Shown: piece by piece, positions 3,450 to 24,516 of the stretch | Position numbering within the stretch: the first letter of the stretch is position 1 | How the letters are laid out: every line of letters begins with the position of its first letter | Assembly: GCF_053078305.1 (NCBI RefSeq) | Contig: NZ_CP166879.1 | Length of the DNA stretch: 64,000 nt | Reading direction: 5' to 3' (one strand) | Notes under the pieces: model-generated | The model's database searches: none | Told to the model about the DNA's origin: nothing | What the model saw: the letters and a program-made list of their open reading frames with translations, nothing else | Program-made: the position numbers and the translations under genes

Positions 3450-3823
3450 CGTTTCGCCTCCGGATGCTTACCCCGGGTAATGTTATTTACCGTTCTGTAA
3501 TTGTCGCGGGTCATCAGGCCGGTCGCCCGGCGAGCCCGGAGGATATCAATACTGTTTATTAACTGAGAGCGGGGACTAGTGCTGAACCGGGGCTGGTCGG
3601 TACGCACCAGCGCGTATTTTTCAACGAGAAAGTTCACCGCGTCACACAGTGAAATGCCTGCCTCAATATGCTGCTCAATCACACGTTCATCGGAGAACGG
3701 TGTGTCATTTAGCGTGAGGCCGTAGTGCTGGTCCAGCAGTCGGGTGAGCAGTGTCTGCCAGATGGTTACTGGAGATGGGCAGCGCGATGCCTCCCGTACG
3801 TGTGTGTCGGGTAATGTGTTCAT
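3446..3823 (-). CDS. cbtA: CbtA-family toxin (YeeV/YkfI/YpjF-like, cytoskeleton-targeting)
   Basis: 125-aa product closely matching remembered YeeV sequence (…WQTLLTRLLDQHYGLTLNDTPFSDERVIEQHIEAGISLCDAVNFLVEKYALVRTDQ…). Confidence 0.85.
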   Translation of the reverse strand: MNTLPDTHVREASRCPSPVTIWQTLLTRLLDQHYGLTLNDTPFSDERVIEQHIEAGISLCDAVNFLVEKYALVRTDQPRFSTSPRSQLINSIDILRARRATGLMTRDNYRTVNNITRGKHPEAKR

Positions 3824-3912
3824 ACTGAAGATTTTCCTGATATGCAGAGATGAAAAATGGGAAAGTGGCGTGGTGAAAACACCAGGCCGGAGCAGAAGGT
3901 TATTCTGATGAT

Positions 3913-4281
3913 TTACTTTTTCGTTTCGGGCGTCGGATAAACAGCCATATAAACGTAACCACAGGAGCCGAGGGTGTCGGCTTCGCAGGTCAGTCCTCTG
4001 GCATACAGCGTGACGGTATGCTGATGGCGGGGATTCAGTTCACCGCTGGTGAGCATGAGTTCCAGTTGTTTCATCAGCAGCGGAAAGGCCTGGTCCAGAT
4101 GGTACGCATCCGCGTCGCTGAACCGGCCTCTGATACCGGCGCGGTCGGCAAGGTAATACAACCGGTTACCCTCCTGCACCAGACGGGCGCCAAAACAGGG
4201 TGTTATAGTGCAGGGCAGCCCCCACCAGGGGCGGTTGTTATAGTCGTCGGGATAATTTGTCTCATGGTGCGTGTCTGACAC
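3913..4281 (-). CDS. cbeA: CbeA-family antitoxin (YeeU/YafW/YfjZ-like)
   Basis: 122-aa product matching remembered YeeU (…RPWWGLPCTITPCFGARLVQEGNRLYYLADRAGI…TLGSCGYVYMAVYPTPETKK); immediately upstream of toxin gene. Confidence 0.85.
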   Translation of the reverse strand: MSDTHHETNYPDDYNNRPWWGLPCTITPCFGARLVQEGNRLYYLADRAGIRGRFSDADAYHLDQAFPLLMKQLELMLTSGELNPRHQHTVTLYARGLTCEADTLGSCGYVYMAVYPTPETKK

Positions 4282-4443
4282 GATAAAGTCCTCACAGAAA
4301 ATCGGTTAAGAAGGGGTTAACGATGACAGGTCAGCCGGTGTGGAGACCGGCTTCGGTGAAGATGTATTCATTGATGAGAAGGGCCTCATCCACAGCGGCG
4401 TCTGAGGTCATCTGGTCGTACTCGTTTTCCGGGTGACGGAACA

Positions 4444-4665
4444 TTAGTTCAGAGTGACGCTCATCAGCCGGACATACGGGCCAAAACTGTCCTTACGGCG
4501 TTCAGCAAACACGGCCAGCACACCGGGAATATCCTGCACTTCACGACCGGTATACGCCTCAGCACTGCCGTGCCAGCGGTACTTACCGGTGCAGAACGGA
4601 AATAGACGGGATGCAGGATGCTGTTGGTGAATACGCATGGCTTCACCACGGGTGATAATTTTCAT
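4444..4665 (-). CDS. yeeT: YeeT-like DUF987 protein
   Basis: 73-aa product MKIITRGEAMRIHQQHP…RLMSVTLN, near-identical to remembered YeeT; conserved position upstream of cbeA. Confidence 0.8.
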   Translation of the reverse strand: MKIITRGEAMRIHQQHPASRLFPFCTGKYRWHGSAEAYTGREVQDIPGVLAVFAERRKDSFGPYVRLMSVTLN

Positions 4666-13566: not shown

Positions 13567-13751
13567 TTCCTTAATCAGAGTGAGAGTGAATAAAAAAGCC
13601 GGTATCCACAGATGTGGATACCGGCAGGTAAAGGGTTACAGTGCCAGAGGTCCGGCTGACGGAAGTTTCTGACGTGTGGCTCTGTTGTTCCCTGAATGTC
13701 TTTCTGTACGTATCTGTGCATGTTACTGACAAAGGTTATTATTAGCTTATC

Positions 13752-13787
13752 GATCGATATAAACGATCGATAAAATAGGTATCGATC
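13752..13787 (-). promoter_or_regulatory. agn43 phase-variation switch: three GATC Dam sites in the OxyR operator region
   Basis: GATC at 13752, 13765 and 13784 within tatcGATCgatataaacGATCgataaaataggtatcGATCg, ~190-220 bp upstream of the flu start codon. Confidence 0.8.
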
Positions 13788-13892
13788 GTTTTATTCTATT
13801 GTTTGGCTATTGCACGGACAAGAGAGACAGTAACGAAAACAGCGCTTTTGTGAGCAGACTCAGAGTCAGGGAGGGCATCAGTCACGACAGGT

Positions 13893-17718: not shown

Positions 17719-18420
17719 TCAACAGGCGTATAACAGGTACTCGTCAATCATCAGTTCCAGCTCGCGCTTTTCCCGTTTGCGCGCCACAGCCCAGTTTTCA
17801 AGCTCTGCATGTGATTTATGCTTTAACTCTTCAGTCCAGGGCTGCATGGAGTGGGCACACATCAGATCATACCAGCACAGCCATATCAGCGTGTGGTAGA
17901 GATCACGATCGTCGAAACGCCGGAGCAGGCTGTTCAGCCTGTTTGCCAGCCGGTTTTCACCCAGACGATGTGGCTCACTGAGTAAAACGCCGCCCAGATT
18001 AAAATGTGTAAGCAGCATGATTTCATGGGTCTGAATGCTGGTCATTAACCCTTCCTGAATGGCAGGAATGAACGGTGGTGTTCCCGGGTTGACGACCTGA
18101 TAGAGTCCCTGTGGTGCCACTGAGATGATAGTGCCTTTTTCCGGCAGAAAAAAGTGTGCCAGGGTCAGACGGTGATAACCATGAAGATGCGGAGACCCCA
18201 TTCCATGAGCGACGATAAGCCTCGTTCTGATGCTGGATGAGCAGCAGCTCACACCGGTTTTCAAGTTTTTGCATAATATTCTCTCCTTTAGCGCGCAGCA
18301 AAATGCCTCCGGGGGCCGGATCATGCCTTTGCTGCGGTGGAACGGATAACGGTCAGGAATTACGGACGGGACTGTGCAATACGCGCCTGCAGCCAGGCTT
18401 CCACTTCGCTTTTCAGCCAT
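17719..18420 (-). CDS. Hypothetical protein, probably frameshifted or with a later start
   Basis: Long ORF overlaps alpA by 60 nt; a GGAGAG-ATG start at 18265-18267 opens a different frame (ORF 18023..18301) that runs only 92 codons before stopping, with the long frame offset from it by one base. Confidence 0.3.
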   Translation of the reverse strand: MAEKRSGSLAAGAYCTVPSVIPDRYPFHRSKGMIRPPEAFCCALKERILCKNLKTGVSCCSSSIRTRLIVAHGMGSPHLHGYHRLTLAHFFLPEKGTIISVAPQGLYQVVNPGTPPFIPAIQEGLMTSIQTHEIMLLTHFNLGGVLLSEPHRLGENRLANRLNSLLRRFDDRDLYHTLIWLCWYDLMCAHSMQPWTEELKHKSHAELENWAVARKREKRELELMIDEYLLYAC

Positions 18421-18566
18421 CGGGAGCTACGGCCCAGTTTGATGGGGGCAGGAAAGGCACCATCCTTGATGAGCTTGTAAAACCATTTATCGGTCAGGCC
18501 GGTCAGCTGAGTGATAAACGACATGTCGACCATCTGGTCATCCATCAGTGAAACTGGGGTATTCAT
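18360..18566 (-). CDS. alpA: AlpA-family phage/island transcriptional regulator
   Basis: 68-aa product from Met at 18566 with GGAGG RBS; AlpA-type HTH (…LTGLTDKWFYKLIKDGAFPAPIKLGRSSRWLKSEVEAWL). Confidence 0.75.
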   Translation of the reverse strand: MNTPVSLMDDQMVDMSFITQLTGLTDKWFYKLIKDGAFPAPIKLGRSSRWLKSEVEAWLQARIAQSRP

Positions 18567-18951
18567 GAAAATGTTCCTCCGGATGTTGTTAATCTCAACC
18601 AGCGTTGGTGATGAAAACAACGCACCACCTTCCCCGGCATAACAACCGGGGAAAAACGTAAAAAATGAGTAGGGGAATATTCCTGCCAGGAGAGAAACTG
18701 TTGTGTACAGGCAATACAGGTTGTCTGTTTTGTCAGTGAAGCCGGTATAAACGGAAGATGATTTTGTGTTGCCGGAATATGGGATGGCGTTTTGCCGTGA
18801 CGGGATCAGTATTTTCAGTGATGATTATTACTGCACAGGGGAGTATCGGAGATAAACCACGCCCTGTACCTGCCAGAGCGGTGGTTTGTATTTACTGAAC
18901 GGAAGATAAAGCAGAGGTAAACACTGTCGCGGTGAAGGTAGAAGGCTGAAA

Positions 18952-20995: not shown

Positions 20996-21595
20996 ATGAA
21001 GACTTACAACGCCAATCCCGGTTACGAAATGGATCCCCAGCTCCTGACACACTTTAATCAGCATCTGGATTCATTATTCGGGGTCTATTCGAAGCTGTTA
21101 CCGTTCAGAATGGATTTTGCTTACCGAAAAAACACATTCAGCTACGGATGCGCCTGCAGGTACGCCATGTGCGCGGAGATGCTGCAACTGATTAACGAGG
21201 TGGGAGAGAAACTGGTCGGGTATGCCTGGGTGATGGAATATACAGAACGTAAAGGGCTTCACATTCATTTTGTGGGCTATCTGAACGGTCAGATCCACAG
21301 GAGTTCGTATCTGGTATCCAGATTGATGGGAGATATCTGGAGGCGGGTTACCGGGGGGGATGGTTACTACCACTGGTGCCGGTTTAATAAAAATTATCCG
21401 GTAAACATTAATCACGTCATTCACTATTCAGACCACAAAGCGGTGAATGCTTTACGCTATGCCATTAGCTACCTTGCCAAACGAGAACAGAAAGAATGTG
21501 GCATCGTTCTTGGTTGCAGCAGGCTTCCTGAAAAAAGTCACCGGGGGCGACCGCGACTGGACAGCACCCTGCCGGGGATATGTTCTCAGGTATAA
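20996..21595 (+). CDS. HUH-motif protein (candidate inovirus-Gp2 / YagK-YfjJ family)
   Basis: 199-aa ORF with GAGGAAG RBS; candidate HUH motif (GLHIHFVGY) and Tyr motif (RYAISYLAKRE) resembling rolling-circle Rep/relaxase motifs II and III. Confidence 0.5.
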   Translation: MKTYNANPGYEMDPQLLTHFNQHLDSLFGVYSKLLPFRMDFAYRKNTFSYGCACRYAMCAEMLQLINEVGEKLVGYAWVMEYTERKGLHIHFVGYLNGQIHRSSYLVSRLMGDIWRRVTGGDGYYHWCRFNKNYPVNINHVIHYSDHKAVNALRYAISYLAKREQKECGIVLGCSRLPEKSHRGRPRLDSTLPGICSQV

Positions 21596-21970
21596 GGTTC
21601 TGAGCGACAACTGCGGACTGGCTCTAATCTTTGCAGTCGGTTCCGGAGGCTACTTCAGAGGCACTATGCATTTTTTACGATGTGGTTACTCCGTATGAAC
21701 GAAACCATACGGAGACTTAACCATACATGACACACCAGTAAAACCCCTGATGGCTGCAACGGTGCTGCATGCGCTGGATGTCCATCTCTGCTTGCTGACA
21801 GTTTTTTACGTCGGTGGGCCATTGTGTGACAACCACAGTGCTGTAACAGCAGCCTGCCTGTTTTACCTTAACCCCATTCCAGATTTTTAACTGAACCGCC
21901 ATTCACACCCTGACCACGCTGCCCGTACCGGGACGCTTGCTGCCTGCGTGTCGTCTGGCGGCTGAGGAAT

Positions 21971-22360
21971 ATGACGATGTACGCAAAATCTTTTCTCGCA
22001 TTCGATGGCAACGGATGCCTGACCGTTGCCCGTACTGCACAGACAGCGCCTTACGATCGATACACCTGTCACCTTTGCGGCAGTGCGCTCAGATACCACC
22101 CGCAATGCGATACCGAACGTCCCTGGTTTGAACACACTGGCGAAGGGCTGGCTGAGCACGGTCATGAGTGCCCTTATGTCAGACCGGAGCGCAGAGAAAT
22201 ACTGTTGATTAAACGCTTACAGCAATGGGTACCGGATGCCTTACCCGTGGTGCGTAAAGCCAGCTGGCACTGCAGACAATGCCAGCACGATTATTATGGG
22301 GAGCGGTACTGCACACACTGTCATACAGGGCGTTTCAGTGAGGAGGCAGTGGCAGGATGA
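21971..22360 (+). CDS. Cys-rich putative zinc-ribbon protein (paralog 1)
   Basis: 129 aa; CxxC near N-terminus (CHLCGS), WFEH motif, C-terminal WHCRQC-x10-CTHCH zinc-ribbon-like pattern. Confidence 0.5.
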   Translation: MTMYAKSFLAFDGNGCLTVARTAQTAPYDRYTCHLCGSALRYHPQCDTERPWFEHTGEGLAEHGHECPYVRPERREILLIKRLQQWVPDALPVVRKASWHCRQCQHDYYGERYCTHCHTGRFSEEAVAG

Positions 22361-22782
22361 ACGGTCTAAAAACGGGGCTGGGGATGACGCCGGGTGAGCA
22401 CATTATCAGTGCCGATTCTGCGCTCAGCAGAAATATCAGGCATTGTTTCTGCCTTTCCTGTCGTGGTCGGTTGATTTTGCAGACAGATGCTCAGGGGGCG
22501 TGGTTTGAGCATGATTTACATGCCCTGAGCGAGCAACAGAAGGCGGCCTGTGTGGTGCTGAATCCGGAAAAATCCCATCCTTACATTGATGATATGGCGA
22601 TGTTTTTATCGCCATTACCGGTCGTACTGGAGTGGCATTGTGTGATGTGTGAGCAGTTTTTTCATGGGAAGAAATTCTGTGAGGCCTGTGGTACGGGGAT
22701 TTATTGCAGAGCAACATGTACGAAGTCTGTTTACAGCTACCAGCCAGATTTGTACCAGGACTGCGGAGGTGCGAGTACTTAA
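22357..22782 (+). CDS. Cys-rich putative zinc-ribbon protein (paralog 2)
   Basis: 141 aa; same architecture as paralog 1 (CFCLSC, WFEH, WHCVMC-x10-CEAC); start overlaps upstream stop (ATGA), GAGGAGG RBS. Confidence 0.5.
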   Translation: MNGLKTGLGMTPGEHIISADSALSRNIRHCFCLSCRGRLILQTDAQGAWFEHDLHALSEQQKAACVVLNPEKSHPYIDDMAMFLSPLPVVLEWHCVMCEQFFHGKKFCEACGTGIYCRATCTKSVYSYQPDLYQDCGGAST

Positions 22783-23253
22783 TCCAAAATATCCGCTCTG
22801 CGCAGGGCGTTCAGAGGTATTGCCAGCCTGCATTTTATCCGGTGTTTCGCACCCACCCCGTTCGTGACACAAAGGCGCGACACCGGATATCCGCAGTCCT
22901 GCTTACCTGAATAAAACCCGGGGGATTGATTGTGTACTGTGGTGCGAAATCGCACCGTGATCGCGGATTCGCCGAATCTGCACTGTGGTGTCAATAAACC
23001 ACACGCGAGAGTCCTCTCCGTATTGATCAGTGCATCAGGACGATTTCTGCATTGTTAATCCAGGGGCTGCATTATTCATTTCCCTGCTAATGGACGTTAC
23101 ATCCTAGATATTCATGATCCTGATTTCCCTGAGCAGTATCAGCGCTTATTGGAGCGTCTGGATTATCTGACGAAGCCCGGTACTAAAGCATCAGGCCAGC
23201 GTAACTCTGGCTACAGCGGTTTTTGACCTGTTGTAACTGTAAGGTGATTTATT

Positions 23254-23820
23254 ATGTATACAGAATCAAACGTTAAGCTTTCCTGTAACGCCCTCTGGCA
23301 AAAGTGTGTCCTTGCAACTCTGTATCGGGCTGCAGCCACACATCCTGAAATTAAATTATTACAATTTAAATTAATACCTTGCCCTGGTATTAATAAGGCC
23401 ATTCCCTCTCTGATGGCTGATTTTACTGGTGAACTGCATAGACTCATTTCTGAATATTTGCAGTGCAAGCGACGTAAAGATAAATCTGTTGAGCCCACCC
23501 CTTTATATTATCTCTGGAGTAGGGAGGCTGTGGCTAACGGTACCACTCCTTATCTTATGGTGCTGCTACTTAATAATGATGTCTGGTGTAAGAGTCGTGA
23601 GGTGGTGGTTCTCAGAAATCTGATTGAGCAGGCGTGGGGAAAAGTATTGGGTGAAGATAACTCCATTACACATCTGGTTGTGTATCCTGAAGTGCTGTCG
23701 TTGGTATTTGATGCAGCTAACACATACAACGCTGAGCCTGGTGTACTGGAACAGACAGCCCGGGCTTACATTGAATCGCATGGTGCTGTTGAACGTTATC
23801 TTGGGTGTAGTGACTTTTAA
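23254..23820 (+). CDS. Hypothetical protein
   Basis: 188-aa ORF with AAGGTGA RBS 8 nt upstream of ATG; no motif recognised. Confidence 0.45.
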   Translation: MYTESNVKLSCNALWQKCVLATLYRAAATHPEIKLLQFKLIPCPGINKAIPSLMADFTGELHRLISEYLQCKRRKDKSVEPTPLYYLWSREAVANGTTPYLMVLLLNNDVWCKSREVVVLRNLIEQAWGKVLGEDNSITHLVVYPEVLSLVFDAANTYNAEPGVLEQTARAYIESHGAVERYLGCSDF

Positions 23821-24267
23821 CGTCAGGTGACGCATTGTCACTTCTGACCTGCTACCTGTACGCCGGAATATAATGGTCAGAGAGGCATATTTCGACGCCC
23901 CTAATCTGGGGCGTTTGATTCTGGATGTCTGGAACAATCCGGGCTTTGTGTCACCGGGCGCATCAAAGCAGTACCACCCGGGATGTGGCGCTGGATCGTC
24001 ATTTACCGGACTGCGAAGACATACTTAAAGAGGTGATATGGGCGTTCAGTGATTTTGTCCGCGATAATCGTGGTGTGTATGATCCGGAAGCCCGTTACCC
24101 CGCCGGTAATACCTGGTATCCCGTAACAGGCCAGTTCTGAAAGCACAGCTCAGCAGATTCCCCGCATTCGCACAATCTTCATAAATCTCACAGAGGACAT
24201 TCTGACCATGTTGACTACAACAAGCCACGACAGCGTATTTCTGCGTGCCGATAATTCCCTGATTGAC

Positions 24268-24516
24268 ATGAACTATATCACCAGTTTCACCGGTATGACC
24301 GACAGAGGGTTTTATAAGCTGATCAGTGAAGATTCATCAAGCCGGGCCGATCCAGCCGCAGGTATAAAAGCGAAGTGTCACAGTAGATACAGTAACGAAT
24401 CGAAGAATCACGGGGGCAGAAGTATGAAACGTGTTGTGATACCGGTACGCTGGCAATGTTCAACGTGTCAGCGCTGGTATTGTGGCGCTGTTCCCTGGTG
24501 CTGGTCCCCCCCGTGA
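24268..24516 (+). pseudogene. alpA-like gene remnant
   Basis: Only the first ~22 codons (MNYITSFTGMTDRGFYKLISED) resemble AlpA (compare MSFITQLTGLTDKWFYKLIKDG at 18360-18566); the rest of the ORF is unrelated. Confidence 0.5.

Follow-up and report, generated by a model that had tools for sequence, protein, structure and literature searches.

A conserved tandem pair of putative zinc-ribbon genes in the core of a CP4-57-like island

Background

P2 Ogr and P4 Delta are small zinc-finger activators of P2-type phages and of their P4-type satellites. Two further described systems are of interest here: CoiA, which is defined by a PD-(D/E)XK nuclease domain (PMC1189080), and islands inserted at the tmRNA site of Pseudomonas, which contain IntY, AlpA, an inovirus Gp2-like gene, RadC and defence cargo (PMC12595487). 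In this work we compare these systems with a pair of adjacent genes, termed ZnR-A and ZnR-B, located in a 64,000 nt stretch of contig NZ_CP166879.1 (NCBI RefSeq assembly GCF_053078305.1). The whole of this stretch is referred to as the window. An earlier note, made from the sequence alone, had described the pair as translationally coupled tandem paralogs with zinc-ribbon-like motifs, belonging to a family that it did not recognise and lying within a satellite-like remnant.

We find that the pair belongs to an already catalogued family, that both genes are maintained by selection in a fixed order, and that they stand at a fixed position in the core of CP4-57-like islands behind a highly conserved leader. 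The reading that we prefer, at a probability of roughly 40%, is that ZnR-A and ZnR-B are zinc-dependent nucleic-acid-binding regulatory or accessory factors of the island core, which would act on the island's own life cycle.

Results and discussion

Family membership and spread

Both proteins have significant matches to the same two Pfam domains in the same order, DUF7828 at the N-terminus followed by Zn_ribbon_11 (Table 1), and both domains match all 46 members of an alignment spanning the family. ZnR-A and ZnR-B are paralogs, with 31% identity over 83 aa (BLASTP, E=2e-11), and each is a full-length member of the family formed by DUF7828 (PF25165) and Zn_ribbon_11 (PF11682, formerly DUF3279). 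The tandem paralogy proposed by the earlier note is thereby upheld. Its view of the family as unrecognised is not, because the family is already known in Pfam, as a domain of unknown function, and in RefSeq, where close homologs are named "putative zinc ribbon protein" or "zinc-ribbon domain-containing protein"; some UniProt entries bear the name 'Ybl85'.

Annotated E. coli proteins are 92–95% identical to the window pair, and homologs of ZnR-A show 57–94% identity across Enterobacterales. When the locus was used as a 951-nt query, matching DNA was found in 3830 of 5426 complete E. coli genomes (about 70%), at a median of 2 and a maximum of 7 places per genome. At least 80% of the query was covered in 1389 genomes, with a best identity of 95.8%. 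Conservation outside the strain, on which the earlier note had made its case depend, is therefore strong, and the family is catalogued without being well characterised. Being already catalogued and extremely common, it does not represent a novel type of system.

A profile searched against 1.84 billion representative proteins gave only 266 hits at E<=0.001, of which many were fragments, and the named source organisms of family members are Enterobacterales only. Searching 5.8 billion proteins with a profile of the N-terminal domain returned the family alone among the 120 hits listed, with no informative fusions. Neither protein has a significant NCBIfam match. Literature searches found no paper giving a function for the family, and sequence and profile searches of the PDB found no solved structure of it, the hits being generic zinc knuckles and one marginal match to RPB9.

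Truncated or chimeric copies of the family are numerous in protein databases. Among the chimeric entries, P0073 joins the N-terminus of A to the C-terminus of B, while P0279 and P0292 combine the N-terminus of B with the C-terminus of A; P0235 is a family protein of 238 aa with an additional N-terminal DUF7828 unit. To judge from these sequences, the chimeric forms suggest recombination or fusion between the tandem paralogs.

Starts and junction of the two genes

The two adjacent open reading frames with an ATGA overlap that had been noted earlier are present on the plus strand, at 21971..22360 (129 aa) and 22357..22782 (141 aa), and the overlap at 22357-22360 bears out translational coupling at the window locus. 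The true start of ZnR-A is probably the second ATG at 21977 (MYAKSF…, 127 aa), since the RefSeq start of homologs and the consensus start of the alignment both fall there and the GAGGA Shine-Dalgarno sequence lies 8 nt away. Given Pfam E values of 1e-28 and 2e-22, ratios of nonsynonymous to synonymous substitution (dN/dS) of 0.14–0.19 and a gene order kept across genera, the pair is beyond chance.

Conserved residues and predicted fold

In the 46-sequence alignment, numbered on the 129-aa form of ZnR-A, columns C33, C36, F53, H55, W99, C101, C104, C114 and C117 are invariant, and A20, C67, G110 and G120 are nearly so. All residues of the patterns CxxC…[W]F-x-H…C and W-x-CxxC-x9-CxxC are present in both A and B. 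The CxxC, WFEH and W-x-CxxC…CxxC motifs pointed out by the earlier note are real and occupy invariant family columns, although the spacing of the C-terminal motif is x9 and not x10. The Cys/His pattern is, as had been suggested, consistent with two zinc sites. In ZnR-A it fits a putative C2HC site (C33, C36, H55, C67) and a putative C4 site (C101, C104, C114, C117), and in ZnR-B the corresponding putative ligands are C32, C35, H52 and C65, and C95, C98, C108 and C111. Zinc binding by both proteins is putative, from this ligand pattern together with the structural model.

The AlphaFold2 monomer model made with the same alignment (mean predicted local distance difference test score, pLDDT, 85.1; predicted template modelling score, pTM, 0.58) places strands at residues 9-11 and 17-19, a helix at 20-25 and strands at 39-43 and 52-55, the WFEH motif falling on the last of these. 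A helix at 72-86 lies between the two motif regions, and the C-terminal region has short predicted strands at 97-101, 107-110 and 123-125. Predicted isoelectric points (pI) run from 5.2 to 9.6 and are mostly 6-8.

Many proteins outside E. coli carry Cys-bearing C-terminal tails on A (…AEVTACAY, …CVC or …CAC), a tail that window A does not have, and many non-E. coli B proteins end in …NYCCSTG. These tails were seen in loci L010, L015, L016, L019, L020 and L029, and those with cysteines could provide a third metal or redox site.

When each of the 46 members was scanned against Pfam, sub-threshold matches were obtained to Zn_ribbon_6 in 19 of them and to CoiA_N in 8 (at E<=0.1, best 1.3e-3); CoiA_N is not among the Pfam matches at E<=10 for either window protein. 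The layout of the CoiA N-terminus, which we take to be β-hairpin…A…CxxCG…L…[H/W]F-x-H…C, is the same as that of the family, and one family member has been automatically annotated as 'competence protein'. Kinship of the N-terminal domain to the CoiA N-terminal zinc finger (CoiA_N, PF25164) is weakly indicated by these likenesses and is kept as a lead.

Order, selection and history of the two lineages

Loci from about 13 genera were surveyed together with contigs encoding selected homologs, the genome survey being seeded on A-type genes. ZnR-A lies upstream and ZnR-B downstream in 15 of 15 paired loci, which represent 12 or more genera of Enterobacterales. Upstream there is always a 'MYAKSF' A-type gene, and the B subtypes begin with MRMLKCYLAN…, MQFRT… or MNGLK…. 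The A copies all fall into a single tight clade of the neighbour-joining tree (mean pairwise identity 66.5%); the B copies are diverse (mean identity 43%) and include several very divergent types. The two genes overlap, with a Shine-Dalgarno sequence inside A, in 10 of 14 paired loci, by 4 nt in E. coli and by 13 nt in seven others, where the Shine-Dalgarno sequence is GGAGGTG-like. A gap of 51–81 bp separates them in four.

Both genes are under purifying selection. Among three E. coli loci dN/dS is 0.14 for A and 0.19 for B, and among seven loci of other genera it is 0.19 for A and 0.17 for B; at these values both A and B are maintained by selection. This bears directly on whether the genes are decaying, functionless remnants of a cryptic element, as might be supposed from the rearranged island, the alpA pseudogene, the insertion sequence (IS) elements nearby and the many truncated or chimeric database copies. 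Both reading frames are intact with all ligand residues, dN/dS is low, 12 or more genera share the order and coupling, and the leader is highly conserved, so that decay is a very improbable explanation.

Not every locus has both genes. A alone occurs on a Klebsiella chromosome and in Citrobacter, and in some loci the same island slot is filled by one divergent B-like member. In one further locus the leader is followed by a gap long enough for an A gene and then by B, which we read from the sequence as a putatively decayed A. Given the loci with A only or a single B-like gene, each protein can evidently work alone, and a heterodimer is therefore possible but not obligatory. The simplest history is of one ancestral gene that was later duplicated, after which A and its leader were held nearly constant and B diversified.

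The leader upstream of ZnR-A

Directly upstream of ZnR-A is a conserved non-coding leader of about 70 nt that abuts the Shine-Dalgarno sequence (Table 1). Its core reads CTGCCC-N5-GGGACGGCT-N3-GCCTGCGTGTCGTCTGGCGG, with the Shine-Dalgarno sequence next. Mean pairwise nucleotide identity is 87.7% over a 48-nt leader core, against 68.5% over the A coding sequence and 52.9% further upstream. A leader more conserved than the coding sequence that it precedes implies tight cis-control of A. An nhmmer profile detected the leader in 35 loci, a single time for each A gene, on the plus strand throughout and with its end about 10 nt short of the start. Nowhere else in the window does the core pattern occur (0 occurrences expected by chance), and in the loci surveyed the leader does not stand upstream of single B-like genes.

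Several identities for the leader were considered and set aside. It is not coding, as its indels between genera are not multiples of 3. As an RNA fold it gave 5 pairs and -2.84 kcal/mol in RNAalifold with no covariation, and a single-sequence z-score of +0.61; it has no Rfam match. A repeated att-like site does not agree with a sequence that is single-copy in the window and present only upstream of A genes in the surveyed loci. No sigma-70 consensus promoter was found on the plus strand upstream of A or of YagK. A short inverted repeat in the leader, CTGCCC-N5-GGGAcGG, has a stem that is conserved and a loop that varies. Candidate roles of the leader are those of an operator or activator site, a protein-bound 5' untranslated region or a site for the Rep-like protein encoded next to the pair.

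The last of these options leads to a different account of the two proteins, namely that they are accessory DNA-recognition subunits of the Rep-like YagK/YfjJ protein, directing it for instance to an origin or nick site, with the leader as the cis site. A YagK/YfjJ gene adjoins the ZnR genes or is one gene away at every locus surveyed, YagK/YfjJ homologs match Pfam YagK_YfjJ_C and, weakly, REP_ORF2-G2P, and the leader is single-copy and strand-specific with its conserved stem. However, only A-type genes have the leader, which is missing from single B-like loci that do possess YagK and AlpA; a nick-site motif for YagK/YfjJ is not known; and a leader abutting the Shine-Dalgarno sequence fits expression control better than an origin. 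We hold this account to be unlikely.

Position within the island

The left part of the window is a CP4-57/CP4-44-like island. The earlier note was right to place the pair in a mobile element, as it lies inside this island, but its term 'satellite-like remnant' was imprecise for a CP4-57-like integrative island whose zinc-ribbon family has no tblastn match in 50,697 phage records. The minus-strand genes of the island are DUF4942, CbtA/CbeA, DUF987, RadC/JAB, an antirestriction gene, DUF932, DUF905, IrmA, a large unnamed gene (hypothetical in locus L002 and listed as a YeeR family protein in another match), Ag43 and a GTPase. Next along the island are YfjI on the plus strand and then a hypothetical gene, AlpA and a second hypothetical gene, all on the minus strand. 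The plus strand continues with YagK/YfjJ, ZnR-A, ZnR-B, the second YagK/YfjJ and a frameshifted alpA, after which sugar-utilisation cargo follows. This copy of the island is rearranged, with the alpA pseudogene and IS elements nearby. With YagK/YfjJ directly upstream, the pair occupies the slot after YagK/YfjJ and AlpA.

Table 1 Coordinates of the gene pair and of features around it in the window
Feature	Position	Strand	Remarks
ZnR-A gene	21977..22360	+	127 aa from ATG 21977; alternative ATG 21971 gives 129 aa; conserved 'MYAKSF' type
ZnR-B gene	22357..22782	+	141 aa; variable downstream paralog
ATGA start/stop overlap of A and B	22357..22360	+	
Shine-Dalgarno sequence of ZnR-A, GAGGA	21964-21968	+	8 nt before ATG 21977
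Shine-Dalgarno sequence of ZnR-B, GAGGAGG	22340-22346	+	within 3' end of A; 10 nt before B ATG
ZnR-A N-terminal domain, Pfam DUF7828	21980..22237	+	E=8.6e-28
ZnR-A C-terminal zinc ribbon, Pfam Zn_ribbon_11	22256..22348	+	E=1.2e-9
ZnR-B DUF7828	22366-22611	+	residues 4-85; E=1.9e-22
ZnR-B Zn_ribbon_11	22618-22725	+	residues 88-123; E=1.3e-14
Conserved non-coding leader	21892..21964	+	core 21919-21950: CTGCCCGTACCGGGACGCTTGCTGCCTGCGTG
YagK/YfjJ ('inovirus Gp2-type', Rep-like), upstream neighbour	20996..21595	+	from RefSeq annotation of homologs
YagK/YfjJ paralog, between B and the second full copy	about 23030-23230	+	
Second YagK/YfjJ-type gene, downstream neighbour	23254..23820	+	same order on Klebsiella plasmid
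AlpA-family helix-turn-helix gene	18360..18620	-	open reading frame as called; annotated homolog 207 nt
Stretch with tblastn matches in two reading frames	24208..24413	+	intact homolog annotated in locus L041

Other genera show the order GTPase(−) … YagK/YfjJ(+) – AlpA(+) – ZnR-A – ZnR-B, after which a second Gp2-type gene or DUF2913 stands in some cases, and a variant in which AlpA, a 197-aa gene and a YagK-like gene precede ZnR-A. The order YagK/YfjJ – AlpA – ZnR was found in Salmonella, Klebsiella, Enterobacter, Serratia, Hafnia, Mixta, Trabulsiella, Siccibacter, Buttiauxella, Yokenella, Citrobacter and Leclercia and on a Klebsiella plasmid. There were 29 plasmid matches in all, including island copies with the same module on Klebsiella IncF/HI1B plasmids. 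The downstream cargo differs in almost every locus and includes McrBC, a cluster of SNF2, AAA, S8, methyltransferase and ResIII genes, TIR with BrxR, SMEK_N/MC6/DUF2326, ars, a tad pilus, a type VI secretion system, resistance-nodulation-division efflux and sugar genes; two loci have an integrase on the far side of the cargo. Because the ZnR genes stay while this cargo changes, they belong to the core and not to the cargo: as backbone genes they mark the constant border of a cargo hotspot, and they run in the same direction as the AlpA and Rep-like genes.

Such a position might also suit a defence or anti-defence pair, in which small zinc proteins would inhibit or sense phage or host nucleases and B would diversify in an arms race. 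The hotspot is rich in defence systems, antirestriction and RadC genes are on the same island, and B splits into several very divergent types. Against this, no family in PADLOC-DB 2.0 matched A, B or either of the YagK/YfjJ neighbours at E<=1, PHROGs gave no significant match (best E=0.013 for either protein), BFVD gave no structural match at E<=0.001 and the phage records, as said above, contain no homolog. Within a type, dN/dS of B is low (0.17–0.19), and the genes, which do not change with the cargo, are aligned with regulatory genes rather than with an antirestriction operon. A role in defence is, in our judgement, decidedly unlikely.

Some further features of the islands were recorded. 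YagK/YfjJ paralogs flank the pair at three plus-strand positions (Table 1); annotations of related E. coli strains place a 66-aa fragment in the interval from B to the second full copy. To the eye, an H-I-H and a Y…Y…K pattern in the first copy are reminiscent of HUH Rep proteins. A full-length Rfam match to IS102 RNA (RF00124, 252.9 bits) lies at 13585-13789 on the minus strand, between the genes for the Ag43 autotransporter and the island GTPase. In a related island of E. coli MB46 (L001), four tandem RtT small RNA annotations at 3807-4486 adjoin the integrase at a tyrT-type site and indicate the integration site of that island copy.

Proposed role of the pair

The role as zinc-dependent regulatory or accessory factors draws on the family and its motifs, the model, selection, gene order, coupling, synteny, the core position, the conservation of the leader and the weak likeness to CoiA_N. 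Each protein would be a small cytoplasmic one of about 130 aa, composed of an N-terminal C2HC finger, a helix and a C-terminal C4 zinc ribbon. The home slot of the genes would be directly after the island's YagK/YfjJ (Rep-like) and AlpA (an excisionase- or activator-type helix-turn-helix protein) genes, sharing their strand and preceding the variable cargo. Following duplication in one lineage, the upstream A with its leader of about 70 nt would have stayed highly conserved and the downstream B would have diversified. A and B would be made together with the AlpA/Rep-like module and would control excision, replication or gene expression of the island; at the window locus they would be co-translated and might form one complex.

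Several observations weigh against this role. We infer the binding of zinc and of nucleic acid by A and B, their regulatory role and the complex, and the near-neutral predicted pI is atypical of non-specific DNA binders. The likeness to CoiA_N is below threshold. The alpA gene that precedes A in many genera is not adjacent to it here, where an alpA gene on the minus strand and the downstream pseudogene are found instead. A six-frame search with hidden Markov models found no ZnR homolog in CP4-57 or CP4-6 of K-12, and in K-12 CP4-57 the slot after yfjJ holds abpAB and rnlAB; ZnR is thus not needed to maintain an island in the chromosome. With regard to a complex, such as the heteromeric pair suggested by the earlier note, coupling through overlapping genes is in its favour. 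The 51–81 bp gaps of four lineages and the loci with A only or with a single B-like gene speak against an obligate heterodimer, and an AlphaFold model of a fused A-linker-B, made with a paired alignment (mean pLDDT 77.6, pTM 0.44), came with no interface metric in its output.

A more specific form of regulation can be imagined, in which ZnR-A, the leader and the diversifying ZnR-B would together make up a previously unrecognised regulatory switch of CP4-57-like islands. A CoiA_N-type zinc-finger factor would bind its own leader, as DNA or mRNA, and would thereby link a signal, for example AlpA induction, phage infection or arrival in a new host, to the expression of cargo or to excision or replication. 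We regard this switch as speculative and its truth as doubtful, but if true it would establish a bacterial class of zinc-finger regulators that is new and peculiar to mobile islands.

CP4-57-like islands are among the commonest mobile elements in E. coli and hold much accessory cargo, including defence systems, genes for adhesins, metabolism and resistance, and toxin-antitoxin pairs. Among their fixed core parts are the ZnR genes and the leader, and knowledge of what these do would help to explain how the islands are regulated and move. With the family already in Pfam and RefSeq, the value of the annotation itself is ordinary; the A-then-B order, the synteny of the core slot and the conserved leader are useful and modestly interesting leads for island research.

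Comparison with known systems

CoiA is the system that the N-terminal domain weakly resembles, at a level below significance. Its defining nuclease domain (Pfam CoiA, PF06054) is absent from the window pair and from the 46 members; the ZnR proteins are just 127–141 aa long and end in the C4 ribbon.

Ogr and Delta raise the question of whether the ZnR proteins are transcription factors that contact RNA polymerase, as P2 Ogr and P4 Delta or as Rpb9 and TFIIS do, and switch on island or helper genes. The AlphaFold2 model, with two small zinc modules joined by a helix, would suit such a function, and the near-neutral pI fits protein-protein contact. The island family uses P4-type integrases and AlpA/Vis-type regulators, which we likewise count in favour. 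The family profile also has a marginal match to RPB9 (E=0.017) that spans both ribbons, although it is below significance and the ligands are not aligned. The resemblance to Rpb9 and TFIIS is one of build, about 125 aa with two zinc modules and a linker, and the ZnR proteins have no significant sequence or fold match to Rpb9/TFIIS_C. Homology to Ogr/Delta was rejected: hhalign against P4 Delta gave a probability of 4.6%, and none of the 46 family members matches Ogr_Delta (PF04606), to which P4 Delta itself, as a control, matches twice at 1e-10. Polymerase contact is accordingly, to our mind, somewhat unlikely, and we continue to prefer nucleic-acid-binding factors of the island core.

Like P4 Delta, the ZnR proteins are small putative zinc proteins of a P4-related element, and the tandem duplication within Delta, seen as its two Ogr_Delta hits, has a parallel in A and B at the level of the gene. 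They differ from Ogr and Delta in their ligand spacing, in having an extra N-terminal C2HC domain and in the absence of sequence or profile similarity, so that the analogy would be functional at most. Where the Pseudomonas islands are concerned, a text search of the paper describing them found no zinc-ribbon gene; the likeness to the island studied here lies in a backbone of integrase, AlpA, Gp2-like and RadC genes combined with variable defence cargo (PMC12595487).

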